DNA from: a virus
Taxonomy: Duplodnaviria > Caudoviricetes
Reading direction: 5' to 3' (one strand)
DNA: 64,000 nt
IMG/VR virus record: IMGVR_UViG_3300042868_009047
Shown here: positions 970-42,512 of the stretch, piece by piece
How positions within the stretch are numbered: position 1 is the first letter of the stretch
Layout: the number at the start of each line of letters is the position of its first letter
Made by a program: the position numbers and the translations under genes
The notes under the pieces: model-generated
Databases searched by the model: none
What the model was told of the DNA's origin: nothing
The model's input: only the letters and a program-made list of their open reading frames with translations

Positions 970-1795
970 AGAAAAATTAAAAGATATACTCTCCACCCCA
1001 ACTTATTGTGGGCAAGAACAATATCTTATAGCGAAAATAACAAGATATCTTAGTGAAAGTAATTTAGATTATGTTGTTGATGAACATGGCAATATCTATG
1101 TAACAAAGGGTGTTGCTGATCACTACCCTTGTATTGTTGCCCATACAGATTCAGTCCATAGGATTGTTGAAATGGATATTCTTGAACGTGAGGATGATGA
1201 GGATATTTTATACGCTGTTGAAAAGGGTACAAATAAAAGAACTGGGTGTGGCGGGGATAATAAGGCTGGTGTATACGTTTGCTTGGAATTACTTGAACGT
1301 GTTGAGATTCTTAAAGCCGCTTTTTTTGTTTCAGAAGAATATGGTTGCTTTGGTTCAATACTTTCAGATGAGACATTCTTTGAAAACGTTGGATACACAC
1401 TTCAATTTGATGCACCAGAAAATGATTGGGTAACCCATTATTGTAATGGTGTTAAACTATTTGATGAGGAAGGTGATTTTTATAAAACAATCCAACCAAT
1501 ACTAGAAGATTACATGGGTGATTATTCTTTGGGTAGACACCCGTACACAGACGTAAGCGTTTTAGGAGCTTTTCATGACTTTTCTTGTATCAACTATTCA
1601 GTTGGTTATTACAACATGCATTCAAACATGGAGTATGTCAGCGTTGGTTTTACACAACAAGCCAAAAATATCGCTTTAGAGATCATTTCATCCCTGGGTA
1701 ATATAAAGTATCCGTTTATAGATGAAACCGTCAGAATCGACAAAGAAAAGGCCAGAGAGAGGGCTTTAAAATCACTTAATGGTTTAAGAAAATAA
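962..1795 (+). CDS. M28/M42-clan zinc peptidase
   Basis: Metal and catalytic motifs VAHTDSVH, GGDNKAG, FVSEEYGCFGS, QFD, YTD and YYNMHSNME. Confidence 0.8.
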   Translation: MSKEKLKDILSTPTYCGQEQYLIAKITRYLSESNLDYVVDEHGNIYVTKGVADHYPCIVAHTDSVHRIVEMDILEREDDEDILYAVEKGTNKRTGCGGDNKAGVYVCLELLERVEILKAAFFVSEEYGCFGSILSDETFFENVGYTLQFDAPENDWVTHYCNGVKLFDEEGDFYKTIQPILEDYMGDYSLGRHPYTDVSVLGAFHDFSCINYSVGYYNMHSNMEYVSVGFTQQAKNIALEIISSLGNIKYPFIDETVRIDKEKARERALKSLNGLRK

Positions 1796-4800: not shown

Positions 4801-7800
4801 GTTGATCCTGAAGATCCACTATTAGCTGAAGCACCGATGTTACCAGCATTACCATTTGTACCGTTTGTACCAGTTGATCCTGAAGAACCTGATAGAGTAC
4901 TTATACCAGAACCAACAGCTAAACCATTTGTACCAGCAGTACCAGTTGATCCTGAAGAACCTGAAGATGCTGAAGAACCACTTAATTGTGATAAACCTGA
5001 GTTACCAGCAGTTCCGTTTGTACCAGTTGAACCTGAAGAACCAGAAGTTCCTGAAGAACCTGAGTTATTACTAGCACCATTGTTACCAACCGTACCAATT
5101 GTACCTGAAGTTGCTGAAGTACCTGAAGTACCCGCAAAACCTGCTATTCTAGAAATACCGTCAGTACCAGCAGTACCAGTACTACCTGAACTACCTGAAG
5201 TACCACTTGATCTACTCAATGAAGACGCACCATCAGTACCATTTGTTCCAGAAGAACCAGAAGTTCCTGAAGAACCTGACGATCTACTTAAACCTGATGT
5301 ACCATTTGTACCAGTTGATCCTGAAGACGCTGAACTACCAGAGTTAGCTGATAAACCATTACCACCGATTATACCTGTAGTACCATTTGTACCAGTCGAT
5401 CCTGAAGACCCGCTTAATGCACTAGCACCTATATTTCCAGCATTACCTGAAGTACCATTAGAACCAGATGTGCCTGATGAACCTGAGTTATTACTCGCAC
5501 CATTATTACCCGCTGTACCAGTTGAACCTGAAGAACCAGCGGTTCCCGAACTTCTACTTAAACCAGACTGACCATCTGTACCATTTGTTCCTGAAGAACC
5601 AGAAGATCCAGAAGAACCTGACAATCTTGATAAACCAGCGGTACCAGCGGTACCTGTAGAACCGCTAGATGCTGAAGAACCACTTAATTGTGATAAACCT
5701 GAGTTACCAGCAGTTCCGTTTGTACCAGTTGACCCTGAACTACCAGATGTTCCTGAAGATCTACTTAAACTAGATTGACCATCGGTACCATTTGTTCCAG
5801 AAGAACCGCTTGTTCCAGAAGAACCAGAAGACCTACTTAAACCAGCAGTACCATTTGTTCCTGAAGAACCACTTGAACCGCTTGACGCACTTGATCCACT
5901 ATTTGAACTTAAACCTGATGTACCATTCGTACCAGTTGAACCTGAAGAACCTGAAGTTCCTGAGCTTCTACTTAAAGCAGACTGACCATCCGTACCATTT
6001 GTTCCAGAAGAACCTGAAGTTCCTGAAGAACCTGAAGATCTACTTAAACCTGAAGTACCATTTGTTCCTGAAGAACCAGAAGAACCTGAAGAAGCAGAAG
6101 ACCCAGACAATTGTGACAAACCTGAGTTACCTGCTGTACCATTTGTACCAGTTGAACCTGAAGTTGCAGAGCTACCTGAAGTTGAACTTAAACCACTATT
6201 ACCAGCATTACCTGATGTTCCATTTGTACCTGTAGAACCACTTGAACCTGAAGTTCCAGCTGAACCAGAACTTCTACTTAAACCTGATTGACCGTCTGTA
6301 CCAGAAGTACCAGAGGTTCCAGCTGTTGCTGAAGATCCGCTTAATCTTGATAAACCTGATGTACCAACCGTACCATTTGTTCCTGAAGACCCCGAAGATG
6401 CGCTAGAACCACTTAACTGAGATAAACCTGAGTTACCAGCGGTTCCGTTTGTACCAGTAGAACCTGAAGTAGCAGAGCTACCAGAAGATGCTGAAGCACC
6501 TGATAAACCAGATGTACCGTTAGTACCAGTTGATCCTGAAGAACCAGCAGTTCCTGATGACCCAGAACTTCTACTTAATCCAGAAAGACCATCTGTACCT
6601 GACGTACCTGTTGATCCAGAACTACCTGAAGTTCCAGAAGTATCACTTAATGCTGATTGGCCATCAGTTCCAGATGTACCTGAAGTTCCAGCTGTTGCTG
6701 AAGACCCACTTAATCTACTCGAACCGTTTGTACCAGCAGTACCAGTTGTTCCCGATGAACCTGAAGAAGCAGATGAACCACTTAATTGAGACAATCCAGA
6801 ATTACCAGCTGTTCCGTTTGTTCCCGTAGAACCAGAGGTTGCTGATGAACCTGAAGATGCTGACGCACCCGATACACCCGCAGTACCGTCAGTACCTTTA
6901 GAACCACTTGAACCAGATGTTCCTGAAGTTCCTGATGTAACAGATATACCACTATTTGCGGCAACACCTGATGTACCAACTGTACCCGAAGTAGCTGAGC
7001 TACCAGAAGTTCCAGCTGAACCACTATTATTACTTGAACCAACTGTACCATTTGTACCCGTAGAACCTGAAGAACCACTTGTGCCTGAACTTCTACTTAA
7101 AGCAGATGCTCCGTCAGTACCTGAACTACCTGTTGATCCTGAACTACCTGAAGTTCCTGAAGTATCACTTAATGCTGACTGACCATCTGTACCAGAAGTA
7201 CCAGATGTACCAGATGTTGCTGAAGACCCAGACAATCTGCCTAACCCAGATGTACCAATTGTACCCGAAGTAGCTGAGCTACCAGAAGTCGCTGAAGAAC
7301 CAGAGTTAGCTGAAGCACCGTTTGTACCAACTGTTCCAGTTGATCCTGAACTACCTGAAGTACCACTTGATCTACTTAGTGATGATTGGCCATCAGTACC
7401 ATTTGTTCCAGAAGAACCAGATGTTCCAGAAGAACCTGACGATCTACTTAAACCTGAAGTACCATTTGTTCCTGAAGAACCAGAAGATGCGCTTGAACCA
7501 CTTAACTGAGATAAACCCGAGTTACCAGCTGTTCCGTTTGAGCCAGATGTACCTGATGTAGCCGAACTACCAGCTGATCCTGAAGAACCACTTAATTGTG
7601 ATAAACCGTTTGTACCCGCAGTACCTGAAGTAGCAGAAGAACCTGATGTAGCTGAGCTACCACTATTCGCTGAAGCACCATTTGTACCGTTCGTACCAGT
7701 ACTACCAGAAGAACCAGATGTTCCTGAAGACCTACTCAATGAAGACGCACCATCCGTACCATTTGTTCCAGAAGAACCAGAAGTTCCTGAAGAACCTGAC

Positions 7801-10800
7801 GATCTACTTAAACCGCTTGTTCCGTTTGTTCCTGAAGAACCTGAAGATGCTGAAGACCCAGACAATTGTGACAAACCTGAGTTACCAGCTGTACCACTTG
7901 AACCAGAAGTTCCTGAAGTTGCTGAAGATCCCGAAGAACCACTTAACGCTGAAGAACCAACTGTACCTGCTGAACCTGAAGTTGCTGATGTACCAGAAGT
8001 TCCTGAAGAACCACTATTTGCACTAGCACCATTTGTACCAGTGGTACCAGTTGATCCTGAACTACCACTTGTACCTGAACTTCTACTTAAAGCAGAAGCA
8101 CCATCTGTACCATTTGTTCCTGAAGACCCAGAAGTTCCAGAAGAACCCGAAGATCTACTCAAACCAGAAGTACCGTTAGTACCACTTGATCCTGAAGTTG
8201 CCGAAGAACCACTTAATTGTGATAAACCTGAAGCACCCGCAGTACCGTTTGTACCTGTAGATCCGCTTGATCCTGATGTTCCAGCTGAACCAGAACTTCT
8301 ACTTAAACCTGATTGACCATCAGTTCCTGAAGTACCAGTCGATCCTGAAGAACCAGATGTACCTGAAGTATCACTTAATGCTGATTGGCCATCAGTACCT
8401 GAGGTACCCGATGTACCAGCTGTTGCTGAAGAACCTGACAATCTTGATGAACCGTTTGTACCAGCGGTACCAGTTGTTCCTGAAGAACCACTTGATGCGC
8501 TTGACCCACTTAATTGTGACAATCCCGATAAACCAGCAGTACCATTTGTACCCGTAGAACCTGAAGACGCTGAAGTACCGCTCGATCCACTATTTGCGGA
8601 TTGACCACTTGTACCAGCGCTACCTGAAGATGCTGATGAACCTGATGAACCTGATGTTCCTGAAGTTGCACTTGATCCAGCACTACCTGAAGATCCGCTT
8701 AACTGAGACAATCCTGATGTACCAACCGTTCCTGATGTTGCTGAAGAGCCTGATGTAGCTGAGCTACCTGAGTTAGCTGAAGCACCTGAAGTTCCGTTAG
8801 AACCTGTAGATCCTGAAGAACCAGATGTTCCGCTTGATCTACTTAATGATGATTGGCCATCAGTTCCTGAAGTACCAGTTGAACCTGATGAACCAGAAGT
8901 TCCTGAAGTATCACTTAACGCTGATTGACCGTCCGTACCTGAAGTACCTGACGTTCCAGCTGTTGCTGAAGACCCACTTAATCTACCCAATCCTGAGGTA
9001 CCATTTGTACCTGAAGTTGCGGAAGATCCTGAAGTTGCGGAAGAACCACTATTTGCTGAAGCACCTGAAGTTCCGTTAGAACCAGTCGATCCAGAAGAAC
9101 CCGATGTTGCTGAAGAACCAGCAGAACCACTTAACGCTGAAGAACCTGCTGTTCCTGAAGTCCCAGAAGAACCTGCGCTACCAGCTGAACCACTTAACGC
9201 TGAAGAACCAACTGTACCAGACGTACCAGAAGATGCTGATGAACCTGAAGTTCCAGCAGAACCTGAAAGTTGACTTAAACCTGAAGTACCGATTGTACCT
9301 GAAGTAGCTGAGCTACCTGAAGTAGCTGAAGAACCGCTATTTGCGCTAGCACCGTTAGTACCGTTTGTACCTGTACTACCTGAACTACCTGATGTACCAG
9401 AACTTCTACTTAATGAAGACTGACCATCTGTACCATTTGTACCTGAAGAACCCGAAGTTCCTGAAGAACCTGAAGATCTACTCAAACCTGAAGTACCATT
9501 TGTTCCTGAAGAACCGCTAGATGCTGAAGAACCGCTTAATTGAGATAATCCTGAGTTACCAGCTGTTCCATTTGAACCGCTTGTACCAGAAGTCGCTGAA
9601 GAACCAGCAGATCCACTTGAACCACTTAATGAACTTAAACCAGATGTACCCGCAGTACCACTTGTAGCAGAGCTACCAGCTGTTGCTGAAGAACCTGAAT
9701 TAGCAGATGCTCCGTTTGTACCGTTTGTACCCGTAGAACCACTTGAACCAGATGTACCAGAACTTCTACTTAACGCTGATGCACCATCCGTACCCGCTGA
9801 TCCTGAAGAACCAGAAGAACCTGATGTACCACTTGTTGCTGAAGTACCCGCTGAGCCTGAGCTACCACTTAATTGTGATACTCCAGATGTTCCAGCTGTT
9901 CCTGATGTTGCGGAACTACCAGCTGTTGCTGAAGAACCACTATTTGAACTTAATCCTGACGTACCGTTTGTTCCAGTTGATCCTGAAGAACCAGCAGTTC
10001 CTGATGAACCTGAAGATCTACTCAAACCAGATTGTCCGTCAGTTCCTGAAGTTCCCGTAGAACCTGATGATCCAGAAGTTCCTGATGTATCACTTAAAGC
10101 TGACTGACCATCTGTACCAGATGTACCAGAGGTTCCAGCTGTTGCTGAAGATCCGCTTAATCTACCCAATCCTGAGGTACCCGCAGTACCACTTGTAGCT
10201 GAACTACCAGAAGTTGCTGAAGAACCTGAATTTGCACTTGCACCTGAAGTACCAGTAGAACCTGTTGAACCACTTGATGCAGATGTTCCTGAAGAACCAC
10301 TATTTGAAGATAAACCAGATGTACCGTTTGTACCAGTTGATCCTGAAGAACCACTAGAACCTGACGTACCGCTTGATTTACTTAATGCTGAAGCTCCATC
10401 AGTACCAGATGTACCACTTGAACCTGAAGAACCAGATGTACCACTTGTTGCAGATGTTCCAGCAGAACCAGAAGAACCTGATAATTGAGACAATCCAGAT
10501 GTACCAACTGTACCTGAAGTGGCAGATGAACCAGAGGTTGCTGATGAACCGCTATTTGCTGAAGCGCCATTTGTACCGTTTGATCCAGTTGAACCACTTG
10601 AACCAGATGTTCCTGAAGATCTACTTAACGATGATTGACCATCAGTTCCTGAAGTTCCTGTTGATCCTGAAGAACCACTTGTTCCAGAAGTATCGCTTAA
10701 AGCTGATTGGCCATCTGTACCTGAAGTACCTGATGTACCAGCCGTTGCTGAAGAACCTGATAATCTACCTAAACCTGAAGTACCGTTTGTACCTGAAGTT

Positions 10801-13800
10801 GCGGAAGAACCAGATGTAGCTGAACTACCAGAGTTTGCCGATAAACCGCTTGTACCAGCTGATCCTGAAGAACCACTTGTTCCCGCTGTTGCTGAAGAAC
10901 CAGCTGAACCACTAGAACCACTTAACGCTGAAGAACCAACTGTACCTGCCGAACCTGAAGTTGCTGATGTACCGCTTGTTGCAGAAGAGCCACTATTTGA
11001 AGATAAACCAGATGTACCGTTTGTACCTGTTGATCCTGAACTTCCACTTGTACCTGAACTTCTACTTAAAGCAGATGCTCCGTCAGTACCAGCTGATCCT
11101 GAAGAACCACTTGATCCTGATGTACCTGAAGTCGCAGATGTACCAGCAGATCCAGAAGAACCTGAAAGTTGACTTAATCCTGATGTACCAATTGTACCAC
11201 TTGTTGCCGAACTACCAGAAGTTGCAGATGATCCAGAATTAGCACTTAATCCTGATGTTCCAGCTGAACCAGTACTTCCTGAAGAAGCTGATGTACCCGC
11301 TGAACCAGAAGATGCGCTTAAACCACTAGAACCTGATGTTCCTGAAGTCGCAGAAGAACCTGCGCTACCAGCAGAACCGCTTAATGCTGAACTACCTGAA
11401 GTACCAGTTGTACCGCTTGTTGCAGAACTACCAGCTGTTGCTGAAGAACCACTATTCGAACTCAACCCTGAAGTACCGTTTGTACCAGTTGAACCACTTG
11501 AACCAGAAGAACCTGAAGTTCCTGAAGATTTACTTAATGCTGATTGACCATCAGTTCCTGAAGTTCCAGTTGAACCACTTGATCCAGATGTACCAGATGT
11601 ATCACTTGTAGCAGAAACACCATCTGTACCTGAAGTACCTGATGTACCAGCTGTTGCTGAAGAACCGCTTAGTCTTGACAAACCTGAAGTACCGATTGTA
11701 CCTGATGTAGCTGAAGAACCTGAAGTTGCTGATGAACCACTATTTGCGCTAACACCTGATGTACCAGCAGTACCTGTAGATCCAGAAGAACCTGAAGTTG
11801 CTGAACTACCACTTAATGCGCTAGCCCCTGAAGTTCCAGCCGAACCACTTGAACCTGAAGTTGCTGATGTTCCAGCTGAACCAGAACTTGCTGATAGACC
11901 TGAAGACCCTGCGGTTCCTGAAGTTGCTGATGTACCAGCCGAACCTGAACTACCGCTTAATGCTGAGCTACCTGATGTACCAGTTGTACCACTTGTAGCT
12001 GAACTACCGCTTGTTGCAGATGATCCGCTATTAGCCGATAAACCTGAAGTACCATTTGTACCAGTTGATCCTGAAGATCCACTTGATCCAGATGTACCTG
12101 AAGATCTACTTAAACCTGATTGACCATCAGTTCCTGATGTACCTGTAGAACCACTTGATCCAGAAGTTCCTGAAGTATCACTTAACGCTGATTGACCGTC
12201 CGTACCTGAAGTACCTGATGTACCAGCTGTTGCTGAAGACCCACTTAATCTACCCAATCCTGAAGTACCATTTGTACCTGAAGTCGCTGATGAACCACTT
12301 GTTGCTGAGCTACCAGAGTTTGCACTAGCACCTGAAGTACCAGCAGAACCTGTTGATCCTGAAGAACCAGAAGTCGCAGAAGAACCTGCGCTACCACTTA
12401 ACGCTGAACTACCAGAAGTACCTGTTGTTCCAGAAGTAGCAGATGAACCTGCGCTCCCCGAAGATGCGCTCAATCCTGAGCTACCAGCTGTTCCTGAAGT
12501 AGCAGAGCTACCTGAAGTTGCCGAAGATCCGCTTAATTGAGATAAACCATTTGTACCAGCAGTACCAGTTGTACCAGAAGATGCTGATGTACCGCTTGAA
12601 CCACTATTTGCAGCTAAACCTGAGGTACCATTTGTACCAGAAGTTGCTGATGAACCAGAAGAAGCTGAAGTTCCTGAAGAAGCAGATGCTCCTGAAGATC
12701 CATTAGAACCTGATGAACCTGCGGTTCCTGAAGTTGCCGATGAACCAGAAGATGAACTTAATCCTGAAGACCCTGCGGTTCCAGAAGTTGCTGAAGTACC
12801 CGCTGAACCACTCAATGCAGAACTACCAGATGTACCTGTTGTACCTGAAGTTGCTGATGAACCAGAAGTTGCTGAAGAACCCGAGTTAGCGCTTAGGCCT
12901 GACGTACCATTTGTACCAGTTGATCCTGAAGATCCGCTAGAACCAGATGTACCACTTGATTTACTCAATGCAGAAGCACCATCAGTTCCTGAAGTACCAG
13001 TCGATCCTGAAGAACCAGATGTACCTGAAGTATCACTTAAAGCAGATTGACCATCAGTACCTGAGGTACCCGATGTACCAGCTGTTGCTGAAGAACCAGA
13101 CAATCTTGATAAACCTGAAGTACCATTTGTACCTGAAGTAGCAGAAGAACCAGACGATGCCGAAGTTCCTGAGGAAGCTGAAGCTCCTGAAGAACCAGCT
13201 GATCCAGCTGAACCTGATGTTCCAGCTGTTGCTGAAGAACCACTTGAAGCACTTAAACCTGAAGATCCAGCTGTTCCTGAGGTAGCCGAACTACCTGAAG
13301 TTGCTGAAGATCCGCTTAATGCACTTAAACCACTCGTACCATTTGTACCTGAAGTAGCTGAACTACCAGACGATGCTGATGTTCCTGAAGATGCCGAAGC
13401 TCCTGAAGAACCTGATGATCCCGTAGAACCTGCGGTTCCTGATGTTGCTGAACTACCAGAACTTGCACTCAACCCTGATGAACCTGCGGTTCCAGAAGTT
13501 GCTGAAGATCCTGATGTTGCTGAACTACCACTATTTGAAGATAATCCTGATGTACCGTTTGTACCTGATGTAGCTGAGCTACCTGATGTACCTGATGAAC
13601 CAGAACTATTACTATTTCCACTCGAACCTGCGGTCCCTGAAGAAGCTGAACTTCCTGAAGAACCTGATGTACCGCTAGTCGCAGATGATCCACTTGTAGC
13701 AGATGATCCCGAATTAGCAGCCAATCCTGAGGTACCATTTGTACCTGAAGTTGCTGATGAACCAGATGATGCCGAAGTTCCTGAAGAAGCTGAAGCACCT

Positions 13801-16800
13801 GAAGAACCATTAGAACCAGTTGAACCTGATGTACCGCTTGACGCTGATGTACCTGAAGAAGCGCTTAAACCTGAACTTCCAGCTGTTCCTGACGTAGCAG
13901 AGCTACCTGAAGTTGCTGAAGAACCACTATTTGAACTCAATCCCGAAGTACCGTTTGTTCCACTTGTAGCAGAAGAACCAGAACTTGCAGATGTACCTGA
14001 AGAAGCTGAAGCGCCTGAAAAACCAGCTGATCCACTTGTACCTGAAGTACCTGAAGAAGCTGAACTTCCAGATGATGCACTTAAACCAGAACTTCCAGCC
14101 GTTCCTGAGGTAGCGGAGCTACCTGAAGTTGCTGAAGAACCCGAGTTAGCGGCCAACCCTGATGTACCATTTGTACCTGAAGTAGCTGAACTACCAGACG
14201 ATGCTGATGTTCCTGAAGAAGCTGACGCACCACTTGACCCAGCTGAACCTGAAGATCCTGAGGTCGCAGAAGTTCCTGAAGAACCAGCTGAACCCGAACT
14301 ACCTGAATTAGCAGCTAAACCTGAAGTACCATTTGTACCTGAAGTAGCTGAACTACCAGACGATGCTGATGTTCCTGAAGAAGCGGAAGCCCCTGATGAA
14401 CCAACAGAACCTGTTGAACCTGAAGTTCCACTTGTTGCTGAAGACCCAGCAGAAGAACTTAAACCTGAAGATCCAGCCGTACCACTTGTAGCAGAGCTAC
14501 CTGAAGTTGCTGATGAACCACTATTACCTGATAAACCACCAGTACCATTTGTTCCTGAAGAACCAGAAGATCCTGATGTAGCTGAAATAGCTGAAATACC
14601 ATCAGCACCATCAACCCCACTTGAACCTGAAGTTCCTGATGAACCAGATGTTTTACTTGAACCAGCTAAACCACTTGTACCTGTTGTACCCGAAGTTGCT
14701 GATGAACCACTTGTTGCTGAAGACCCTGAATTAGCTGATAAACCACTTGTACCAGCTGTTCCTGAAGTTGCAGATGAACCAGATGATGCTGATGTTCCTG
14801 AAGATGCTGATGCCCCTGATGAACCTGATGTACCAGCTGTTCCACTTGTAGCTGAAGAACCTGATGTTGCAGATGTACCTGAAGAAGCTGAAGCTCCACT
14901 TGAACCTGCCGAACCACTAGTTGCAGATGTACCTGAAGAAGCTGAACTTCCAGATGATGCACTTAAACCAGAACTTCCAGCCGTTCCTGACGTTGCAGAC
15001 GAACCAGAAGAAGCCGAAGAACCCGAATTAGCAGCTAAACCTGAGGTACCGTTTGTACCTGAAGTTGCTGATGATCCTGATGTAGCTGAACTACCGCTTA
15101 AAGCAGAAGCCCCACTTGTACCTGATGAACCTGAACTACCTGATGTAGCTGAAGTACCTGAAGTTGCTGATGAACCACTATTTGCACTCAAACCTGAGGT
15201 ACCGTTTGTACCTGAAGTCGCTGACGAACCCGATGATGCACTTAAGCCTGAAGAACCAACCGTACCACTTGTTGCAGAGCTGCCTGAAGAAGCTGACGCT
15301 CCTGATGAACCATTAGAACCTGAAGTAGCAGAGCTGCCTGAAGTTGCTGATGATCCTGAGTTTGCTGATAAACCAGAAGTACCATTTGTACCTGTAGAAC
15401 CAGCTGTTCCTGAAGAACCTGAAAATTGACTTAAACCTGACGCACCAGCAGTACCATTTGTACCAGTTGATCCTGAAGAACCGCTTGATCCAGATGTTCC
15501 TGAAGTTGATGATAAATTACTATCCCCACCAATACCTGATGTTCCAGTTGAACCCGAACTACCTGAGGTCCCTGATGTTGATGATAAATTACTTTCACCA
15601 TCTATACCTGAAGTACCATTTGATCCACTTGACCCTGATGTACCTGAAGAAGAACTATCACCACTTATACCTGAGGTTCCATTGGAGCCGTCAGCTCCTG
15701 AAGAACCGTTTGTTCCAGTTGAACCTGATTCACCTGACAATCCAGATGTACCATAAGACCCATCATTTCCTGAAGATCCATCAGACCCAGTTGACCCAGA
15801 CGTACCTGATTGACCAGATGTGCCATAAGACCCATCATTTCCTGAAGATCCATCAGACCCAGTTGATCCTGATTCACCTGACAATCCAGATGTACCAAAA
15901 GAACCATCAACACCTGATAAACCCGATGTACCGTCTGATCCAGAGACACCTGAAACACCGTTAACACCATTTAAACCTGAAGAACCATCACTACCATTTG
16001 AACCTGACTCCCCACTTCGACCATTTGAACCAAAGGAACCATAAACTCCTGAAGAACCATCTGTTCCATTACTACCAGATTCACCTGAAACACCTGAAGT
16101 CCCATTGGAACCATTATTTCCTGAAGATCCATCGGATCCTGTAGAACCACTTTCACCACTTAAACCTGAAGTTCCAAAACTACCATCATTTCCTGAAGAA
16201 CCGTCAGTACCTGTACTACCAGATTCCCCTGATTGACCAGATGTTCCGAAAGAACCATCTAAACCACTCGATCCGTCTGTTCCAGTTGACCCAGATTCAC
16301 CACTTATACCTGAGGTTCCGTTGGAACCATTATTACCACTACTACCATCTGTACCTGTTGAACCAGATTCACCAGATTGACCTGAAGTTCCAAAGGAACC
16401 ATCGTTTCCTGAAGATCCATAAGTACCATTTGATCCAGATTCACCACTTATACCTGAGGTTCCGTTGGAACCTGAAACACCTGATGTACCATCAACACCA
16501 TCAACACCATCAACACCATTTGTACCACTTGATCCTGATTCTCCGCTTATACCTGAAGTTCCGTTGGAACCATTATTACCACTAATACCATCTGTACCAG
16601 TTGATCCGCTTTCACCAGATTGACCACTTGTACCAAAACTACCATCGTTTCCTGAAGATCCATCGGATCCAGTTGAACCAGACGTACCAGATTGACCTGA
16701 AGTTCCAAAACTACCGTCAGCTCCTGAAGAACCATCTGAACCTGTTGAACCAGACGTACCAGATTGACCTGAAGTTCCAAAACTACCGTCAGCTCCTGAA

Positions 16801-18074
16801 GAACCATCTGAACCTGTTGATCCAGACTCACCTGACAACCCTGAAGTTCCAAAACTACCATCAACACCTGATAAACCCGATGTACCATCTGATCCAGAGA
16901 TACCAGAACTACCATCAACACCATTTAAACCAGAAGTACCAGTTGAACCGCTTTCACCTGAAACGCCACTTGTACCAAAAGAACCATCGTTTCCTGAAGA
17001 TCCATCGGATCCAGTTGAACCGCTTTCACCTGATTGACCTGAAGTTCCAAACGATCCGTCATTTCCTGAACTACCGTCAGATCCTGTACTACCTGACTCT
17101 CCACTTACACCTGAAGTTCCATTGGAGCCATTATTACCACTACTACCATCTGAACCAGTTGAACCAGATTCACCTGATAAACCAGATGTTCCGAAAGAAC
17201 CATCAGCACCCGATAAACCGTCTGTGCCAGTGCTACCACTTTCACCGCTTATACCTGATGTACCAAAAGATCCATCATTTCCTGAAGACCCATCGGATCC
17301 TGTAGACCCGCTTTCTCCACTTATACCTGAAGTTCCGTTGGAACCAGAAACACCACTTATACCTGAAGTTCCGAAGGAACCATCAACACCACTTATACCT
17401 GATGTACCATCAACACCATCAACACCATCAACACCATTTGTACCTGAAGTACCAGAAACCCCTGATGTACCATAAGATCCGTCATTTCCTGATGAACCAT
17501 CACTACCTGTACTACCACTTTCTCCACTTACACCTGAAGTTCCGAAGGAACCATCAGCACCACTTTCGCCTGAAGTTCCTGTGGATCCAGATTCCCCTGA
17601 AACCCCTGAAGTTCCAAAAGAACCATCATTTCCTGAAGAACCATCAGAACCTGAAGAACCTGATGTTCCTGACTCACCTGAAGTACCGTAAGAACCACCT
17701 AAACCTGAATAACCTGAAGTACCAGCGGTACCAGATGTACCTGCTAATAAAGGTGAATAAGAATATTCACCAGTAACTGAATTAAACGACACGAAATAGT
17801 TTGGTGAACTATTTTGGGTCATACCAGTAACAAATAATTGATTTAATGTATAAATACCCTTAAGATCTTGGGTATTTTCCCACTGAAGCGTGGAGTTATT
17901 CCAAACTAGAATATCCCCTTCATTGGGGCCAGCGCCAGCTATTACAACGTCTGATAGATCATCTATACCTAGATTTTCTATAACGTCCTTTATATTTTGG
18001 AAGTTAGCGTCTAATTCCGCGTAGGATAGCGCCCTTCCTAGATCATCCCTAAGATAAATTGTTACTGTTGCCAT
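1827..18074 (-). CDS. Giant (5,415 aa) Gly/Ser/Thr period-3 repeat tail fibre with C-terminal peptidase S74 intramolecular chaperone
   Basis: N-terminus LRDDLGRALSYAELDANF and LSDVVI..GDILVWN resembles phage fibre N-termini. About 5,200 aa of (G/A/x)-x-(S/T/N) triplets follow. The C-terminus FSDERVKDN...GVIAQEVQKVIPE...VAYSNLVGLLIEAIKDL is the S74 chaperone signature, with the predicted cleavage Ser at 2097-2099. Confidence 0.85.
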   Translation of the reverse strand: MATVTIYLRDDLGRALSYAELDANFQNIKDVIENLGIDDLSDVVIAGAGPNEGDILVWNNSTLQWENTQDLKGIYTLNQLFVTGMTQNSSPNYFVSFNSVTGEYSYSPLLAGTSGTAGTSGYSGLGGSYGTSGESGTSGSSGSDGSSGNDGSFGTSGVSGESGSTGTSGESGADGSFGTSGVSGESGSTGSDGSSGNDGSYGTSGVSGTSGTNGVDGVDGVDGTSGISGVDGSFGTSGISGVSGSNGTSGISGESGSTGSDGSSGNDGSFGTSGISGESGSTGTDGLSGADGSFGTSGLSGESGSTGSDGSSGNNGSNGTSGVSGESGSTGSDGSSGNDGSFGTSGQSGESGSTGSDGSSGNDGSFGTSGVSGESGSTGTSGLNGVDGSSGISGSDGTSGLSGVDGSFGTSGLSGESGSTGSDGSSGADGSFGTSGQSGTSGSTGSDGSSGADGSFGTSGQSGTSGSTGSDGSSGNDGSFGTSGQSGESGSTGTDGISGNNGSNGTSGISGESGSSGTNGVDGVDGVDGTSGVSGSNGTSGISGESGSNGTYGSSGNDGSFGTSGQSGESGSTGTDGSSGNNGSNGTSGISGESGSTGTDGSSGLDGSFGTSGQSGESGSTGTDGSSGNDGSFGTSGLSGESGSTGSDGSSGNNGSNGTSGVSGESGSNGTDGSSGVYGSFGSNGRSGESGSNGSDGSSGLNGVNGVSGVSGSDGTSGLSGVDGSFGTSGLSGESGSTGSDGSSGNDGSYGTSGQSGTSGSTGSDGSSGNDGSYGTSGLSGESGSTGTNGSSGADGSNGTSGISGDSSSSGTSGSSGSNGTSGIDGESNLSSTSGTSGSSGSTGTSGIGGDSNLSSTSGTSGSSGSSGSTGTNGTAGASGLSQFSGSSGTAGSTGTNGTSGLSANSGSSATSGSSATSGSNGSSGASASSGSSATSGTVGSSGLSASSGSSATSGTNGTSGLSANSGSSATSGTSATSGSSGSSGTSGASALSGSSATSGSSATSGTNGTSGLAANSGSSASSGSSATSGTAGSSGLSASSGSSASSGTSATSGSAGSSGASASSGTSATSGSSATSGTAGTSGSSGASASSGTSASSGSSATSGTAGTSGLSANSGSSATSGSSATSGTTGTSGLAGSSKTSGSSGTSGSSGVDGADGISAISATSGSSGSSGTNGTGGLSGNSGSSATSGSSATSGTAGSSGLSSSAGSSATSGTSGSTGSVGSSGASASSGTSASSGSSATSGTNGTSGLAANSGSSGSAGSSGTSATSGSSGSAGSSGASASSGTSASSGSSATSGTNGTSGLAANSGSSATSGSSATSGTAGSSGLSASSGSSASSGTSGTSGSAGFSGASASSGTSASSGSSATSGTNGTSGLSSNSGSSATSGSSATSGTAGSSGLSASSGTSASSGTSGSTGSNGSSGASASSGTSASSGSSATSGTNGTSGLAANSGSSATSGSSATSGTSGSSGSSASSGTAGSSGNSNSSGSSGTSGSSATSGTNGTSGLSSNSGSSATSGSSATSGTAGSSGLSASSGSSATSGTAGSTGSSGSSGASASSGTSASSGSSATSGTNGTSGLSALSGSSATSGSSATSGTAGSSGLSASSGSSATAGTSGSAGSAGSSGASASSGTSASSGSSATSGTNGTSGLSRLSGSSATAGTSGTSGTDGQSALSDTSGTSGSSGSTGTSGTDGASALSKSSGTSGSSGSSGSTGTNGTSGLSANSGSSATSGSSATSGTTGTSGSSALSGSAGTSATSGTAGSSGLSSSSGSSATSGTAGSSGSNGSSGASASSGTSASSGSSATSGTNGTSGLAANSGSSGTSASSGTTGTAGTNGLSQLSGSSATSGSSATSGTAGSSGLSASSGSAGSSATSGTTGTSGSSALSGSAGSSATSGSSGSTGSAGTSGASANSGSSATSGSSATSGTNGTSGLGRLSGSSATAGTSGTSGTDGQSALSDTSGTSGSSGSTGTSGTDGQSGLSRSSGTSGSSGSSGSTGTNGTSGLSANSGSSATSGSSATSGTTGTSGSSALSGSSGSAGTSATSGTAGSSGLSASSGSAGTSATSGSSGSAGTSGASALSGSSATSGSSGSTGTAGTSGVSANSGSSATSGSSATSGTIGTSGLSRLSGSSATAGTSGTSGTDGVSATSDTSGTSGSSGSTGTSGTDGQSALSKSSGTSGSSGSSGSTGTNGTSGLSSNSGSSATAGSSATSGTTGTSGSSALSGSAGSAGSSATSGTSGSSGLSASSGSAGTSASSGSTGSAGTSGLSANSGSSATSGSSATSGTIGTSGLSQLSGSSGSAGTSATSGTSGSSGSSGSAGTDGASALSRSSGTSGSSGSTGTNGTSGLSSNSGSSATSGTSATSGSAGTVGSSALSGSSGSAGSSATAGTSGSSGSAGTSGLSANSGSSATSGSSATSGTNGTSGLGRLSGSSATAGTSGTSGTDGQSALSDTSGTSGSSGSTGTSGTDGQSSLSRSSGTSGSSGSTGSNGTNGASANSGSSATSGSSATSGTVGTSGLSQLSGSSGSAGTSATSGTSGSSGSSGTSGTDGASALSKSSGTSGSSGSSGSTGTNGTSGLSSNSGSSGTSASSGSTGSTGTSGASANSGSSATSGSSATSGTAGTSGLGRLSGSSATAGTSGTSGTDGQSALSDTSGTSGSSGSTGTSGTDGQSGLSRSSGSSGTAGSSGSTGTNGTSGLSSNSGSSATAGSSATSGTAGTSGVSQLSGSSGSAGTSATSGTSGSSGSSGSAGTDGASALSRSSGTSGSSGSTGTNGTNGASANSGSSATAGSSATSGTAGTSGLSSLSGSSGSAGSSATSGTSGSNGTAGNSGLSQLSGSSASSGSSGTNGTSGLSRSSGSSGTSGSSGTNGTDGQSSLSRSSGTSGSSGSTGTNGTNGASANSGSSATSGSSATSGTIGTSGLSQLSGSAGTSGSSASSGTSGTVGSSALSGSAGSAGSSGTSGTAGSSALSGSAGSSATSGSSGSTGSNGTSGASANSGSSATSGSSATSGTNGTSGLGRLSGSSATAGTSGTSGTDGQSALSDTSGTSGSSGSTGTSGTDGQSSLSRSSGTSGSSGSTGSNGTSGASANSGSSATSGSSATSGTVGTSGLSQLSGSSGSAGSSATSGTSGSSGSSASSGSAGTSGQSANSGSSGTSASSGSTGTNGTAGLSGLSQLSGSSASSGSSGTTGTAGTNGSSRLSGSSATAGTSGTSGTDGQSALSDTSGTSGSSGSTGTSGTDGQSGLSRSSGSAGTSGSSGSTGTNGTAGASGLSQLSGSSATSGSSGTNGTSGLSRSSGSSGTSGSSGTNGTDGASALSRSSGTSGSSGSTGTTGTNGASANSGSSGTSGTSATSGSAGTVGSSALSGSSGSSATSGTSGSSGTAGNSGLSQLSGSSASSGSSGTNGTSGLSRSSGSSGTSGSSGTNGTDGASSLSRSSGTSGSSGSTGTNGTNGASANSGSSATSGSSATSGTAGTNGLSQLSGSSGSAGSSATSGTSGSNGTAGNSGLSQLSGSSASSGSSGTNGTSGLSRSSGSSGTSGSSGTNGTDGQSSLSRSSGTSGSSGSTGTVGTNGASANSGSSATSGSSATSGTIGTSGLGRLSGSSATSGTSGTSGTDGQSALSDTSGTSGSSGSTGSSGTDGASALSRSSGTSGSSGSTGTNGTVGSSNNSGSAGTSGSSATSGTVGTSGVAANSGISVTSGTSGTSGSSGSKGTDGTAGVSGASASSGSSATSGSTGTNGTAGNSGLSQLSGSSASSGSSGTTGTAGTNGSSRLSGSSATAGTSGTSGTDGQSALSDTSGTSGSSGSTGTSGTDGLSGLSRSSGSSGTAGSSGSTGTNGTSGLSGASASSGSSATSGSTGTNGTAGNSGLSQLSGSSASSGSSGTNGTVGTSGLSRLSGSSATAGTSGTSGTDGQSGLSRSSGSAGTSGSSGSTGTNGTSGNAGNSGLSSTSGSSATSGSTGTNGTAGNSGLSQLSGSSASSGSSGSSGTNGTSGLSRSSGSSGTSGSSGTNGTDGQSALSRSSGTSGSSGSTGTNGTSGLSSNSGSSASSGSSGSSGTNGTAGLSRSSGSSGTSGSSGTNGTDGQSSLSRSSGTSGSSGSTGTNGTAGNSGLSQLSGSSASSGSTGTAGTAGLSRLSGSSGSSGSSGTNGTDGQSGLSRSSGTAGSSGSTGTAGNNGASNNSGSSGTSGSNGTSGNAGNIGASALSGSSGSTGTNGTTGIIGGNGLSANSGSSASSGSTGTNGTSGLSRSSGSSGTSGSSGTNGTDGASSLSRSSGTSGSSGSTGTAGTDGISRIAGFAGTSGTSATSGTIGTVGNNGASNNSGSSGTSGSSGSTGTNGTAGNSGLSQLSGSSASSGSSGSTGTAGTNGLAVGSGISTLSGSSGSTGTNGTNGNAGNIGASANSGSSGSTGTNGTTGIIGGNGLSANSGSSASSGSTGTNGTSGLSGLSGSSGTSGSSATSGLAGSSGSSGTEGTTGTTGFRGQSGFSGTSGLSGSAGSTGSNGTSGNAGNIGASALSGSSGSTGSNGTGGVAGLNGISALSGTSGSSGTAGNSGLGGSSGTSGSSGSSGTAGASGSSRLSGSSATSGSNGTSGNAGNIGASANSGSSGSTGTNGTTGNAGANGNSAVSGTSGSTGTAGTNGLPVPSGISQLSGSSGSTGTNGTNGNAGNIGASANSGSSGSTGTNGTTGNNGNSGNSGLSGTNGSTGTNGNNGANGVSGLSGLSGSNGTAGTSGASGGNGVSGLSGLSGSNGSNGTNGNAGGNGNSGLSGTSGSTGSTGTTGNAGGNGNSAVSGSSGSSGTGGTNGLPVPSGISQLSGSSGSSGTNGTSGNAGTIGLSRLSGSSGSTGTNGTSGNNGNSGNSGNSGLSGTNGSNGTNGNNGANGVSGLSGISGSNGTAGTSGASAGNGVSGLSGSSGSTGTSGTTGNAGAIGLSRLSGSSGSTGTNGTNGNNGANGNSGNSGLSGSNGTAGTSGASGGNGVSGLSGISGSNGTAGTNGNNGANGNSGNSGLSGSTGTNGTTGNNGNAGGNGNSAVSGSSGSSGTGGTNGLPVPSGISQLSGSSGSTGTNGTSGNNGNNGNSGLSGLSGSNGSNGTNGNNGGVGLGGVSGVSGTNGSTGTGGANGLNGGNGNSGVSGVNGSNGTNGAAGNNGNNGANGTSGVAGNNGNNGAGGLSGVNGSNGTNGAAGNNGNNGAGGLSGVNGSNGTNGAAGNNGNNGAGGLSGANGTNGTTGVAGTSGQSINGTSGISGGSFTNQPDYLVRTTSATQVQSVSFLKVDTTSNRLGINNASPSYTLDVSGTIYASADVIAFSDERVKDNVVTISDALNKVRSMRGVNYTRNDVEDKSLKMGVIAQEVQKVIPEVISTRESDGYLGVAYSNLVGLLIEAIKDLDKEIQDLKK
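2359..2543 (-). repeat. 72-bp near-exact tandem repeat (about 2.5 copies) inside the fibre gene
   Basis: Unit cctgataaaccacctgcaccg... starts at 2359, 2431 and 2503; it encodes 24-aa GNNGNNGAGGLSGVNGSNGTNGAA-type units. Confidence 0.85.
2836..3683 (-). repeat. 119-bp exact dispersed duplication inside the fibre gene
   Basis: 2836-2954 is identical to 3565-3683 (729 bp apart, in frame). It encodes the GNAGGNGNSAVSGSSGSSGTGGTNGLPVPSGISQLSGSSG block. Confidence 0.8.
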
Positions 18075-40629: not shown

Positions 40630-40665
40630 TGTTATAGAATAAAACTAAAACTAGAAAACACAAAG

Positions 40666-40696
40666 CCCTGGACCTACAAGTTCAGGGTTTTTTTTT
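40666..40696 (+). terminator. Leader terminator upstream of the tRNA array
   Basis: CCCTGGAC/GTTCAGGG hairpin plus T9. Confidence 0.75.
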
Positions 40697-40726
40697 GCAG
40701 TTCTTTGACGTATTGGTAATTTATTT

Positions 40727-40802
40727 CAGGATATGGGGGAGTCAGGTCGTCCCTACCTGCCTTGGACGCAGGGGATCGCTGGTTCGAATCCAGCTATCCT
40801 GA
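40727..40802 (+). tRNA. trnP: tRNA-Pro(TGG)
   Basis: CAGGATA/TATCCTG acceptor, CCTGC-CTTGGAC-GCAGG anticodon arm, GCTGG-TTCGAAT-CCAGC T arm. Confidence 0.9.
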
Positions 40803-40808
40803 CAAAAT

Positions 40809-40883
40809 GTCTTCGTAGCTCAGTTGGTTTAGAGCACCTCACTTTTAATGAGGGAGTCATGAGTTCGAATCTCATCGGGGACA
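40809..40883 (+). tRNA. trnK: tRNA-Lys(TTT)
   Basis: Full cloverleaf; CCTCA-CTTTTAA-TGAGG. Confidence 0.92.
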
Positions 40884-40888
40884 CAAAT

Positions 40889-40958
40889 GTATAAGTTGAT
40901 CGTGGTGGTCGGTTGGTCTGCAACACCAACGGTGTTGGTTCGATTCCAACCTTATACT
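40889..40958 (+). tRNA. trnC: tRNA-Cys(GCA) with shortened D-loop
   Basis: GTATAAG/CTTATAC acceptor, U73 discriminator, TTGGT-CTGCAAC-ACCAA; D-loop only about 5 nt. Confidence 0.75.
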
Positions 40959-40967
40959 CAAATACAC

Positions 40968-41040
40968 ACGTCTGTAGCTCAGTTGGTAGAGCACTGGTCT
41001 CCAAAACCAGGTGTCGTTGGTTCGAATCCAGCCAGGCGTG
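40968..41040 (+). tRNA. trnW: tRNA-Trp(CCA)
   Basis: CTGGT-CTCCAAA-ACCAG; G73. Confidence 0.92.
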
Positions 41041-41046
41041 CTAAAT

Positions 41047-41126
41047 GCCCTTGTAGGCGAATGGTATAGCCGCTGGTCTTAGAAACCAGAGCGAAAGCAT
41101 TGCAAGTTCGAGTCTTGCCAGGGGTA
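41047..41126 (+). tRNA. trnL: tRNA-Leu(TAG)
   Basis: CTGGT-CTTAGAA-ACCAG; long variable arm. Confidence 0.9.
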
Positions 41127-41131
41127 CACAT

Positions 41132-41204
41132 GCACCTTTAGCTCAGTTGGTAGAGCGCTGCCCTTACATGGCAGATGTCATAGGTTCGAGTCCTATAGGG
41201 TGTA
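41132..41204 (+). tRNA. trnV: tRNA-Val(TAC)
   Basis: CTGCC-CTTACAT-GGCAG; canonical D and T arms. Confidence 0.92.
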
Positions 41205-41207
41205 CAA

Positions 41208-41340
41208 AGGTTGATCGGGGAATGATCACATTAATAGTTCGAGAGTGAATACTGACTGGTGTGATCGGAGTTTGTAGGTATTCACCTAAGTAATGCCGAT
41301 CGTAAAAGAGGATGTCCACTAGACCATCTTCCTCTTTCCT
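41208..41340 (+). ncRNA. Candidate structured RNA of unknown class inside the tRNA array
   Basis: Pairings 41213-18/41296-301, 41245-52/41278-85, 41224-30/41260-66 (pseudoknot) and 41306-11/41331-36; no cloverleaf. Confidence 0.5.
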
Positions 41341-41345
41341 TACTT

Positions 41346-41427
41346 GCCAGTATCGCATAGCGGCAATTGCAGCGGATTGTAAACCCGCTCTCATTTGAGT
41401 TCGGTGGTTCGAGTCCACCTGCTGGCA
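41346..41427 (+). tRNA. trnY: tRNA-Tyr(GTA)
   Basis: GCGGA-TTGTAAA-CCCGC; long variable arm; GGTGG-TTCGAGT-CCACC. Confidence 0.88.
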
Positions 41428-41439
41428 CTATTTATTAGT

Positions 41440-41898
41440 ATGAGAAAACTAATAATAATCATAATGGTTTTATCCACAACGATTTGTAAATCACAAATTG
41501 TAATAGATAAAGCTGGGGATGGTTGGGATCTAAAAGCTGATAGCGCATTAGCGATTATTAAGCAAACAGATACCACAACTTATAAACTTGTGTTACAAGT
41601 TTGTGATAAAATAACTTTTTGGTCTGGTGGTTACTCAACAAATGAGGGTTCTAAAGATACAAAAGGAAGTATAATAATATCATCTACAGATGCTAAGGCT
41701 AAATCCTTAAATAATCTCGCTGCTGTTATTGTACACGAATCTTTACATCTTTATCTTAGACATAGGGGTATTCAAGAATCACCAAGAGAAGAAATACTTT
41801 GTTATTCATATGAGTATGACTTCTTAAGGAAAATACCTAATGTTGAACAGTATCTGTTGACCCATTGTTTAAAACAGATACGTCTTCGACAAAATTAA
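41440..41898 (+). CDS. Exported zincin-like (HEXXH) protein embedded in the tRNA array
   Basis: Signal peptide MRKLIIIIMVLSTTICKS-Q; VIVHESLHL...EEILC; TATTTAT at 41429-41435. Confidence 0.65.
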   Translation: MRKLIIIIMVLSTTICKSQIVIDKAGDGWDLKADSALAIIKQTDTTTYKLVLQVCDKITFWSGGYSTNEGSKDTKGSIIISSTDAKAKSLNNLAAVIVHESLHLYLRHRGIQESPREEILCYSYEYDFLRKIPNVEQYLLTHCLKQIRLRQN

Positions 41899-41899
41899 T

Positions 41900-41972
41900 G
41901 GGGTCATAGCTCAATTGGCTGAGCGCTACCCTTGCAAGGTAGAGGATGTGGGTTCAAGTCCCACTGGCTCCA
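41900..41972 (+). tRNA. trnA: tRNA-Ala(TGC)
   Basis: G3:U70 present; CTACC-CTTGCAA-GGTAG. Confidence 0.92.
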
Positions 41973-41978
41973 CTATAT

Positions 41979-42049
41979 TGTCCTGTGGTGTAAAGGCAGC
42001 ACATCTGGTTTTGATCCAGAGAATAGAGGTTCGAATCCTCTCAGGACAA
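41979..42049 (+). tRNA. trnQ: tRNA-Gln(TTG)
   Basis: TGTCCTG/CAGGACA; TCTGG-TTTTGAT-CCAGA. Confidence 0.9.
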
Positions 42050-42078
42050 CAACTATCTCGCCAGATTGGCGAGAAAAT

Positions 42079-42153
42079 GGCGAGATAGCTCAGAGGAAGA
42101 GCATTCGGCTCATATCCGAAAGGTCGGGATTTCGAAACTCCCTCTCGCTACCA
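42079..42153 (+). tRNA. trnM: tRNA with CAT anticodon (elongator Met; Ile2 not excluded), CCA encoded
   Basis: GGCGAGA/TCTCGCT; TTCGG-CTCATAT-CCGAA; ACCA end. Confidence 0.82.
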
Positions 42154-42158
42154 TACAT

Positions 42159-42232
42159 GGTGTCTGTAGCTCAATCGGGAGAGCATTGGTTTGTGGAACC
42201 AAAGGTAGTGGGATCGAAACCCATCAGTCACC
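42159..42232 (+). tRNA. trnH: tRNA-His(GTG)
   Basis: G-1:C73; TTGGT-TTGTGGA-ACCAA; T-loop ATCGAAA. Confidence 0.85.
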
Positions 42233-42238
42233 CAAAAT

Positions 42239-42312
42239 ACCTTCATAGCTCAATGGATTAGAGTATTTCAATACGAATGAAAGGGTTGGGAGTTCGAGTC
42301 TCTCTGAAGGTA
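42239..42312 (+). tRNA. trnR: tRNA-Arg(ACG)
   Basis: ACCTTCA/TGAAGGT; TTTCA-ATACGAA-TGAAA. Confidence 0.88.
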
Positions 42313-42372
42313 CAATAAACCTGTTTTTGCTACGATAAAGCAACCTACTTTATTGTGCAAAATCTAATTTAT

Positions 42373-42446
42373 CGTCCTGTAGCTCAGTTGGTTAGAGCAT
42401 TTTCCTGATACGAAAAAGGCCGCTGGTTCGAATCCAGCTAGGACGA
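42373..42446 (+). tRNA. trnI: tRNA-Ile(GAT)
   Basis: TTTTC-CTGATAC-GAAAA; GCTGG-TTCGAAT-CCAGC. Confidence 0.9.
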
Positions 42447-42512
42447 CTTAACATTTAAATTACCAGTACCGTCTTTTTTTCATTTATAAAAGTATTTATA
42501 ATAAACGCTTTT

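Follow-up and report, generated by a model that had tools for sequence, protein, structure and literature searches.

A family of structured RNAs of about 140 nucleotides within the tRNA arrays of phages

Between its genes for tRNA-Val(TAC) and tRNA-Tyr(GTA), the tRNA array of a tailed phage carries a member of a real, widespread, and previously uncatalogued family of structured RNAs, which are about 140 nt long and absent from Rfam 15. The DNA analyzed here, referred to as the window, is a stretch of 64,000 nt from the IMG/VR record IMGVR_UViG_3300042868_009047. Its contents are those of phage DNA (virion structural proteins, a helicase, a ClpB-like ATPase, and an ORF of 5415 codons), and a Bacteroidota host is indicated, since one of its proteins has a type IX secretion sorting domain. 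Phage tRNA arrays are seen as tools for the takeover of translation and for escape from tRNA-cleaving defenses. To our knowledge, the non-tRNA RNAs that lie inside such arrays (T4 species 1 and 2, GOLLD, and freshwater-1) remain unexplained after decades. An earlier note, made from the letters of the window, had proposed a new class of pseudoknotted ncRNA at this site, and had named a comparison with Rfam and a covariation analysis of homologues as checks. Both were run: no known Rfam family matches the element, and compensatory changes are present among the homologues in all four helices that had been claimed. The proposal of a new class thus stands, in the form of a covariation-supported, pseudoknotted family without a match in Rfam 15.

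The element and its place in the array

According to ARAGORN and Rfam, the window has 13 tRNA genes, all on the + strand, at 40727-42447. The spacers in this array are mostly 4-8 nt long; the exceptions are a gap of 140 nt, a 152-codon ORF that follows tRNA-Tyr, and two longer spacers (28 and 59 nt). The 140-nt gap is filled by the element. As the earlier note had stated, it is free of ORFs and of cloverleafs: none of the former was found between tRNA-Val and tRNA-Tyr, and ARAGORN makes no tRNA or tmRNA call in 41206-41345. The limits of the element are the edges of conservation in alignments A2, A3, and A5, and 41200-41347 of the window is scored by the covariance models R1 (179 bits) and R2 (176 bits). 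With window position 41206 counted as position 1, the element and its neighbors are laid out as follows.

41132-41205, + strand: tRNA-Val(TAC), the upstream neighbor, with its discriminator base at 41204 (ARAGORN, Rfam)
41206-41345, + strand: the entire element (positions 1-140), which takes up the gap from tRNA-Val to tRNA-Tyr
41207-41210, + strand: helix E, 5' strand AAGG, pairing with 41338-41341 (positions 2-5 / 133-136)
41213-41218, + strand: helix A, 5' strand GATCGG, pairing with CCGATC at 41296-41301 (positions 8-13 / 91-96)
41224-41230, + strand: helix B, 5' strand GATCACA, pairing with TGTGATC at 41260-41266 (positions 19-25 / 55-61)
41236-41238, + strand: helix F, 5' strand AGT, inside the B loop, pairing with ACT at 41255-41257 (positions 31-33 / 50-52)
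41245-41252, + strand: pseudoknot 1, 5' strand GTGAATAC, in the B/F loop (positions 40-47 / 73-80)
41255-41257, + strand: helix F, 3' strand ACT
41260-41266, + strand: helix B, 3' strand TGTGATC
41270-41273, + strand: pseudoknot 2, 5' strand GTTT, within the invariant CGGAGUU junction (positions 65-68 / 116-119)
41278-41285, + strand: pseudoknot 1, 3' strand GTATTCAC, pairing with 41245-41252 and crossing helix B
41296-41301, + strand: helix A, 3' strand CCGATC
41305-41311, + strand: helix D, 5' strand AAAGAGG, pairing with CCTCTTT at 41331-41337 (positions 100-106 / 126-132)
41312-41330, + strand: loop of hairpin D, 19 nt, with near-invariant GUCCAC and CCAUCUU
41321-41324, + strand: pseudoknot 2, 3' strand AGAC, in the loop of hairpin D
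41331-41337, + strand: helix D, 3' strand CCTCTTT
41338-41341, + strand: helix E, 3' strand CCTT, directly after helix D with zero nt between
41346-41428, + strand: tRNA-Tyr(GTA), the downstream neighbor, starting 4 nt past the last pair of helix E

A fold supported by covariation

Taken singly, the sequence folds no better than its shuffles (z = -0.65 for the + strand and -1.74 for the - strand; not significant on either), and the helices therefore had to be tested on relatives. Two alignments were used for this: (i) A2, consisting of 20 close members aligned with MAFFT and not structure-fitted; and (ii) A5, consisting of 95 members chosen for diversity, whose aligning model contained pseudoknot 1 and no helix B, so that the test of helix B is an unfitted one. 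Among the 20 close members, 99.2% of the cells are paired and 16 of 38 pairs have changes on both sides, and among the 95 diverse members the corresponding values are 96.2% and 29 of 36. In the controls on these 95 members, none of 500 shuffles reaches the observed value, and partners slid by 1-3 columns pair at 38-49%. G-U cells far outnumber A-C cells (208 vs. 10), which indicates that the RNA is read from the tRNA strand.

The four helices claimed in the earlier note correspond to A, B, D, and pseudoknot 1; each of them lies where it had been placed, and each has compensatory changes. Helix A is 99.8% paired in the 95 diverse members, with changes on both sides in four of its six pairs (e.g., GATTAG/CTAATC and GATTGG/CCAATC). 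In helix B, all seven pairs have such changes on A5, and 99.3% of its cells are paired on A2. Helix D is 99.2% paired in the 95 members, where its central pair occurs as G-C (54), A-U (19), C-G (14), and U-A (8). The pseudoknot that had been claimed, pseudoknot 1, covaries in eight of eight pairs and is 97.5% paired in the same members. Its whole sequence is replaced in other subgroups with the pairing kept (GTGTGTAT/GTACACAC, GTTTATAC/GTATAAAC, GATGAT/ATCATC, GGTAG/CTACC, and TGTCAGT/ACTGTCA), and compensatory changes from A-U to G-C and from C-G to U-A are already found in the unfitted A2.

Three elements of the fold go beyond the earlier note, namely the closing helix E, the small helix F, and a second pseudoknot. 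In the 95 diverse members, 92% of the cells of helix E are paired; its outer pair is A-U in 34 and U-A in 32, and its third pair is G-C in 92 and A-U in 3. Helix F belongs to the subgroup of the window's type (among the 20 close members, G-C 18 and U-A 2 at one pair, U-A 18 and C-G 2 at another) and is longer or different in other subgroups. Pseudoknot 2 is the strongest unexplained pair outside the modeled helices in a mutual-information scan. In 153 unique sequences its outer pair is U-G in 85, G-C in 58, and U-A in one, with nine non-pairs, and pair 66/118 is U-A in 149 and G-C in two, the rare change of A118 to C being matched by a change of U66 to G.

The supported strands follow one another in the order E5'-A5'-B5'-PK1(5')-B3'-PK2(5')-PK1(3')-A3'-D5'-PK2(3')-D3'-E3', where PK1 and PK2 are the two pseudoknots. 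The covariation shows a three-way junction, in which helix E clamps both ends and abuts hairpin D, while an arm of A and B (with F) branches off between E and D. No nucleotide separates helices D and E in all but one sequence of alignments A3 and A4, and the two helices probably stack for this reason. In this fold, pseudoknot 1 is shown by its paired changes to be formed by the B loop folding back on the strand after B, and pseudoknot 2 likewise to pin the D loop to the junction after B.

Other pairings were considered and set aside. An AUG/CAU extension of hairpin D, suggested by energy minimization, has its first pair unpaired in 39 of the 95 members and does not covary. A pairing of the 5' GGUUGA with the D loop has no change on both sides, and 40-55 of the 95 members leave two of its six pairs unpaired; where positions 118 and 4 change, the compensating change is found in pseudoknot 2 and in helix E, not in this pairing. 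The second GATCGG, from which the earlier note had derived an alternative fold, is indeed present at 41263-41268, but a full alternative helix can be formed in only 2 of the 95 members and is a coincidence of the window's lineage.

These comparisons also decide against the reading that the gap holds decayed tRNA genes or chance inverted repeats without function, for which one could cite its length of about two tRNAs and the failure of the lone sequence to fold better than shuffles; with compensatory changes in seven helices, 199 distinct members among the matches listed, no cloverleaf, and loops that stay near-invariant across members with differing flanking tRNAs, this reading is refuted by the covariation counts and its probability is negligible.

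The conserved core and a shorter paralogue

About 35 unpaired nucleotides, located in the junctions and in the D loop, are near-invariant across all subgroups. They comprise GGGGAAU after A, CGGAGUU after B, AGUAAnG before the 3' strand of A, and GUAAAA at the A/D junction, in addition to the D loop, which varies only at its first two nucleotides and at the four between GUCCAC and CCAUCUU. The string GTCCAC-NNNN-CCATCTT is present in every member that was found by searches anchored elsewhere in the element, and the loops are near-invariant also where the flanking tRNAs differ between members. According to the modeled fold, the two pseudoknots would gather the near-invariant nucleotides into one compact core. 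Such invariance would suit catalysis as well as binding.

In about 12 loci a shorter paralogue of 110-132 nt, here called type B, lies in tandem directly 5' of the main copy (e.g., at about 5500-5640 on the + strand of locus L044; also in L113, L087, L070, L194, L208, L250, and L248). Type B keeps helices E, A, and D and the D loop (AUGUCCACGCACCCAUCUUC), and has no pseudoknot 1; its GGUU and AG(A/U)AAUG segments are fused. The models R1 and R2 do not report the type B copies. What this reduced form retains shows the essential parts of the element and marks its minimal core.

Size and spread of the family

Relatives were collected by several routes. A neighboring ORF led to 12 IMG/VR loci, and in 10 of these the element is present with 94-97% identity. 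IMG/VR was also scanned for three exact words, each taken from a different part of the element, and a gapped pattern was searched in metagenomes, where it is found in more than 120 contigs, a lower bound. Among the matches listed, the family comprises 199 distinct element sequences from about 300 viral and metagenome contigs, with one main copy per array or locus. Two of the relatives, L010 and L011, share the flanking ORF and have neither the element nor any of the array.

The same gapped pattern has one match in 185,579 species genomes, on a 2.7-kb tRNA-array contig that was binned in a Sphingobacteriaceae MAG. No member was found in the 50,697 phage records of INPHARED by blastn with different members as queries. 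Since the records of cultured phages have no member, the family is so far known only from uncultured phages. A weak blastn match in Marine virus AG-345-E15 is not a member (5.6 bits with R1, and no tRNAs).

Genomic context

A survey of 220 distinct loci shows that the element is embedded in tRNA arrays in a constant orientation, with 2260 of 2265 neighboring tRNAs on the same strand and 5 on the opposite one. In 170 loci (81%), a tRNA starts 2-10 nt (mode 4-5) past helix E. This downstream tRNA is tRNA-Tyr(GTA) in 111 of the 170, and tRNA-Val, -Trp, -Thr, -Arg, -Asn, -His, -Glu, -Met, or -Gln in others. On the upstream side, a tRNA ends at most 9 nt away in 138 of 217 assessable loci (64%). 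Between the tRNAs of these loci, the most frequent spacer is 5 nt; since the spacers beside the element are equally short, it takes up a slot in the manner of a tRNA. In loci without a directly adjoining upstream tRNA, its place is taken by type B, by freshwater-1 RNA (RF02979), by another, unclassified hairpin-rich RNA, or by a short promoter-like motif, or the gap is simply longer.

On the tRNA strand of the window, a consensus scan found nothing that resembles a promoter or a terminator at or beside the element; it placed a + strand terminator at 40662-40691, ahead of the array. Because the element lies on the strand of the tRNAs, without a promoter or terminator beside it and with short spacers on both sides, we infer, with good support, that it is processed together with the tRNAs, as the earlier note had supposed.

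No conserved partner protein was found for the element: when 3398 ORFs from the loci were clustered all-against-all, even the most common families each accompanied 27 or fewer of 92 element types. The recurrent neighbor families are DUF6915, DUF6878, HAD_SAK_2, Peptidase_M23, HNH endonucleases, and DUF5856.

Comparison with known RNAs

Rfam 15 was searched at three thresholds. At the gathering score, nothing in the window overlaps the element; at E ≤ 0.05, nothing falls on it in seven loci; and at E ≤ 10, in the gap of the window and six short loci, nothing falls on it either, with HDV-like ribozymes, tRNA, tRNA-Sec, tmRNA, and riboswitches among the models covered.

The element is most readily compared with rnaC (species 1, 139 nt) and rnaD (species 2, 119 nt) of phage T4, which are likewise non-tRNA RNAs of 120-140 nt on the tRNA strand inside a phage tRNA cluster, and which are annotated as small stable RNAs. 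Species 1 and 2 are made from a tRNA precursor, and we know of no function established for them so far. The 3' end of rnaC forms a tRNA-like T arm and an acceptor-like stem. Its T arm is the canonical GGTTCGAATCC, whereas the element has a 19-nt loop (GUCCAC...CCAUCUU) and two pseudoknots. Model R1, run unfiltered on T4 68000-76000, gave a best score of 7.9 bits (E 0.8), which is not at rnaC or rnaD; all scores in this region are at noise level (8 bits or less), and homology to the two was rejected.

HDV-like ribozymes are built on a nested double pseudoknot (P1 crossing P2; P1.1 between L3 and J1/4; P3; and an optional P4); their catalytic C is the first nucleotide of J4/2, and they cleave themselves at the 5' end of P1. 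The earlier note could not fit this topology by eye, and the supported order of helices does give a different one: the element is a three-way junction with two separate loop-to-strand pseudoknots, and no HDV-type Rfam model matches it, so that HDV-like or theta identity was rejected. No J4/2 can be assigned in the element because of this difference in topology. Theta ribozymes, which are minimal HDV-like ribozymes, are like the element small pseudoknotted RNAs at phage tRNAs; they occur in Caudoviricetes with Bacteroidota or Bacillota hosts, directly after tRNA genes, and are proposed to process tRNA 3' trailers (PMC10879173). They are tied to the upstream tRNA, however, while the element is tied more tightly to the downstream one.

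Freshwater-1 RNA (RF02979) is, like the element, an orphan structured RNA in a slot of the same tRNA arrays. It has 62 model positions and a different sequence and fold, and RF02979 matches the neighboring gap and never the element. In L283 it matches 2907-2969 on the - strand, between tRNA-Asn and the element (74.5 bits vs. a gathering score of 72). Gaps of 67-71 nt after tRNA-Asn or tRNA-Trp in L311, L050, L299, L267, L095, and L071 were likened to it by sequence similarity only, and RF02979 is not among the listed matches for L095 (at E ≤ 0.05) or L050 (at the gathering score).

GOLLD (PMC5737381) and ROOL (PMC12286853) are RNAs of phages or prophages that are often found beside tRNAs or within tRNA arrays. 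With a length of several hundred nucleotides and an assembly into homo-oligomeric cages, they differ from the 140-nt element, which has no sequence relation to them (no Rfam match).

The tRNA-like domain of tmRNA has its parts in the same order as the element: the 5' strand of a terminal stem comes first, followed by a connecting helix that carries a pseudoknotted body, then by a hairpin, and finally by the 3' strand of the stem. On the other hand, the terminal stem of tmRNA has 7 pairs vs. 3-4 in the element, which also lacks a T-loop consensus, the G-U identity pair for alanine, and a tag ORF. The identification of the element as a tRNA or tmRNA was rejected, since ARAGORN makes no call and the Rfam models of tRNA, tRNA-Sec, and tmRNA do not overlap it at E ≤ 10.

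A search of the literature found no paper that describes the family. An unnamed motif with occasional overlap of tRNA-Tyr calls, which may or may not be this family, is mentioned in a catalogue of 10,006 viral candidate RNAs (PMC10690425). The RNAs of the Minerva preprint are other RNAs, not this family.

Possible functions of the element

The function that we favor, with somewhat less than even confidence, is that of a stable small RNA of tRNA-like shape, which would be released by RNase P and RNase Z and act in trans by binding a factor. The element would be transcribed as a passenger within the polycistronic tRNA precursor. Its 5' end would be made by the RNase Z-type 3' processing of the upstream tRNA, where a cut after the discriminator is expected because CCA is not encoded in these tRNA genes, and its 3' end (...CCUUACUU) by the RNase P cut at +1 of the downstream tRNA. 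End processing by RNase P and RNase Z-type enzymes is an established part of bacterial tRNA maturation. The two cuts together would release a stable small RNA, with its ends held together by helix E and with a 4-nt 3' tail that starts with A. In its predicted layout, E stacked on D (3-4 plus 7 pairs) and the D loop tied to the other arm would recall the elbow of a tRNA. This likeness is read from the topology, with helix E at only 3-4 pairs, and is treated as a resemblance only, because no tRNA or tmRNA model matches. The partner of the conserved core may be a component of the tRNA or translation machinery, or else a host defense factor that senses tRNA-like RNA, in which case the element could be the functional counterpart of species 1 and 2, the stable RNAs in the tRNA cluster of T4.

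A bolder proposal, which we regard as possible but unlikely, is that the family is a new class of catalytic or tRNA-mimicking RNA, i.e., either a self-cleaving ribozyme whose fold resembles no known class and that punctuates phage tRNA precursors, or a tRNA-shaped decoy. The mimic, which shares this joint estimate, would be recognized by RNase P, RNase Z, and the CCA-adding enzyme, and would occupy or decoy a tRNA-binding host factor such as a tRNA-targeting defense nuclease.

If the ribozyme is taken by itself, the core of such a new self-cleaving class would cleave the precursor at the 5' edge of helix E, or close to it, and thereby free the 3' end of the RNA upstream, the role proposed for theta ribozymes; in a variant, it would cleave in the 4-5-nt linker before the downstream tRNA. 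The compact fold with two pseudoknots and the roughly 35 near-invariant junction and loop nucleotides are consistent with this, as is the setting in a phage tRNA array, where the element lies 1-3 nt past a tRNA discriminator in 64% of the loci, comparable to theta ribozymes (PMC10879173). More speculatively, the RNA-repair-type phosphatase HAD_SAK_2 found near the arrays could handle cyclic-phosphate ends. However, 36% of the members have no tRNA directly upstream, the ordinary tRNA-tRNA junctions of the same arrays do without such an element, and no candidate cleavage site stands out. As the topology is other than the nested double pseudoknot of HDV, and no known ribozyme family matches at E ≤ 10, we consider self-cleavage improbable.

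The closer tie to the downstream tRNA than to the upstream one (81%, with a fixed linker of 4-5 nt and the consensus A-N-U-U, vs. 64%) would be expected of a cis-acting leader that modulates the access of RNase P to this tRNA, or its folding or the timing of its release, and in 111 of 170 cases the tRNA in question is tRNA-Tyr(GTA). Such a leader is nonetheless distinctly improbable, since the linker has the length of an ordinary inter-tRNA spacer, the tRNA varies (Val, Trp, Thr, Arg, Asn, His, Glu, Met, or Gln), 19% of the members have no adjacent downstream tRNA, and a 140-nt core with a double pseudoknot far exceeds what the role requires.

A riboswitch-like aptamer that couples a metabolite or an ion to the processing of the array is very improbable: invariant junction nucleotides enclosed by pseudoknots do resemble aptamer pockets, but there is no expression platform, no conserved alternative pairing, no consistent downstream ORF, and no match to a riboswitch family.

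With 110-150 nt, a fold with a double pseudoknot backed by covariation, few invariant nucleotides to mutate, and a minimal natural form in type B, the family is a compact test case and a strong candidate for bench work, in which its ribozyme nature, tRNA mimicry, and binding partner are directly testable questions. If the RNA is catalytic, it would represent a new class of ribozyme; if it serves as a decoy, it would be a novel form of RNA-based counter-defense.

Further features of the arrays and the window

The motif GTTCTTTGAC(A/G)TATTGG is present in the window at 40697-40714, before the first tRNA of the array and directly after the terminator at 40662-40691. It also precedes the 152-codon ORF in the array-less L010 and L011 (at about 3900-3930), and lies 23-55 nt upstream of the element in L200, L253, L190, and L125. 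It looks like a phage promoter or a processing signal.

Within the array, the 152-codon ORF itself (41440-41898, + strand) separates tRNA-Tyr from tRNA-Ala. It matches nothing in Pfam or PHROG and is kept at 83-92% in 12 IMG/VR contigs, two of them without the array. The single ORF of 5415 codons (1827-18074, - strand) has a G+C content of 0.45-0.47, vs. 0.31-0.38 elsewhere in the window.

In L058, an ORF at 7467-8087 (- strand) encodes the HAD phosphatase domain of the "Swiss Army Knife" RNA-repair proteins (PF18143, E 5e-20). Homologues of this HAD_SAK_2 domain are found in 44 loci, with 27 of the 92 element types, and the HNH endonucleases there are of the homing type.

In several loci, unclassified non-tRNA stretches that are closed by long stems immediately precede the element on its 5' side; they measure 82-92 nt in L148, L151, L057, and L089; 92 nt in L041, L058, and L271; 107 nt in L147 and L205; and 118 nt in L186 and L198. 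In the six loci scanned, these stretches have no Rfam match at E ≤ 0.05. About a quarter of the same-strand gaps between tRNAs in the surveyed loci are 61-160 nt long, and the arrays may for this reason hold several more unclassified small RNAs.

Known RNAs other than tRNAs are found in the loci as well. The 3' part of a tmRNA, cut by the contig end, lies at 1-179 (+ strand) of L194 (41 bits vs. a gathering score of 47, E 1e-13). Group I introns (52.7 and 85.5 bits) are located at 1381-1567 (- strand) of L283 and at 7071-7287 (+ strand) of L175, one of them beside a partial tRNA match.
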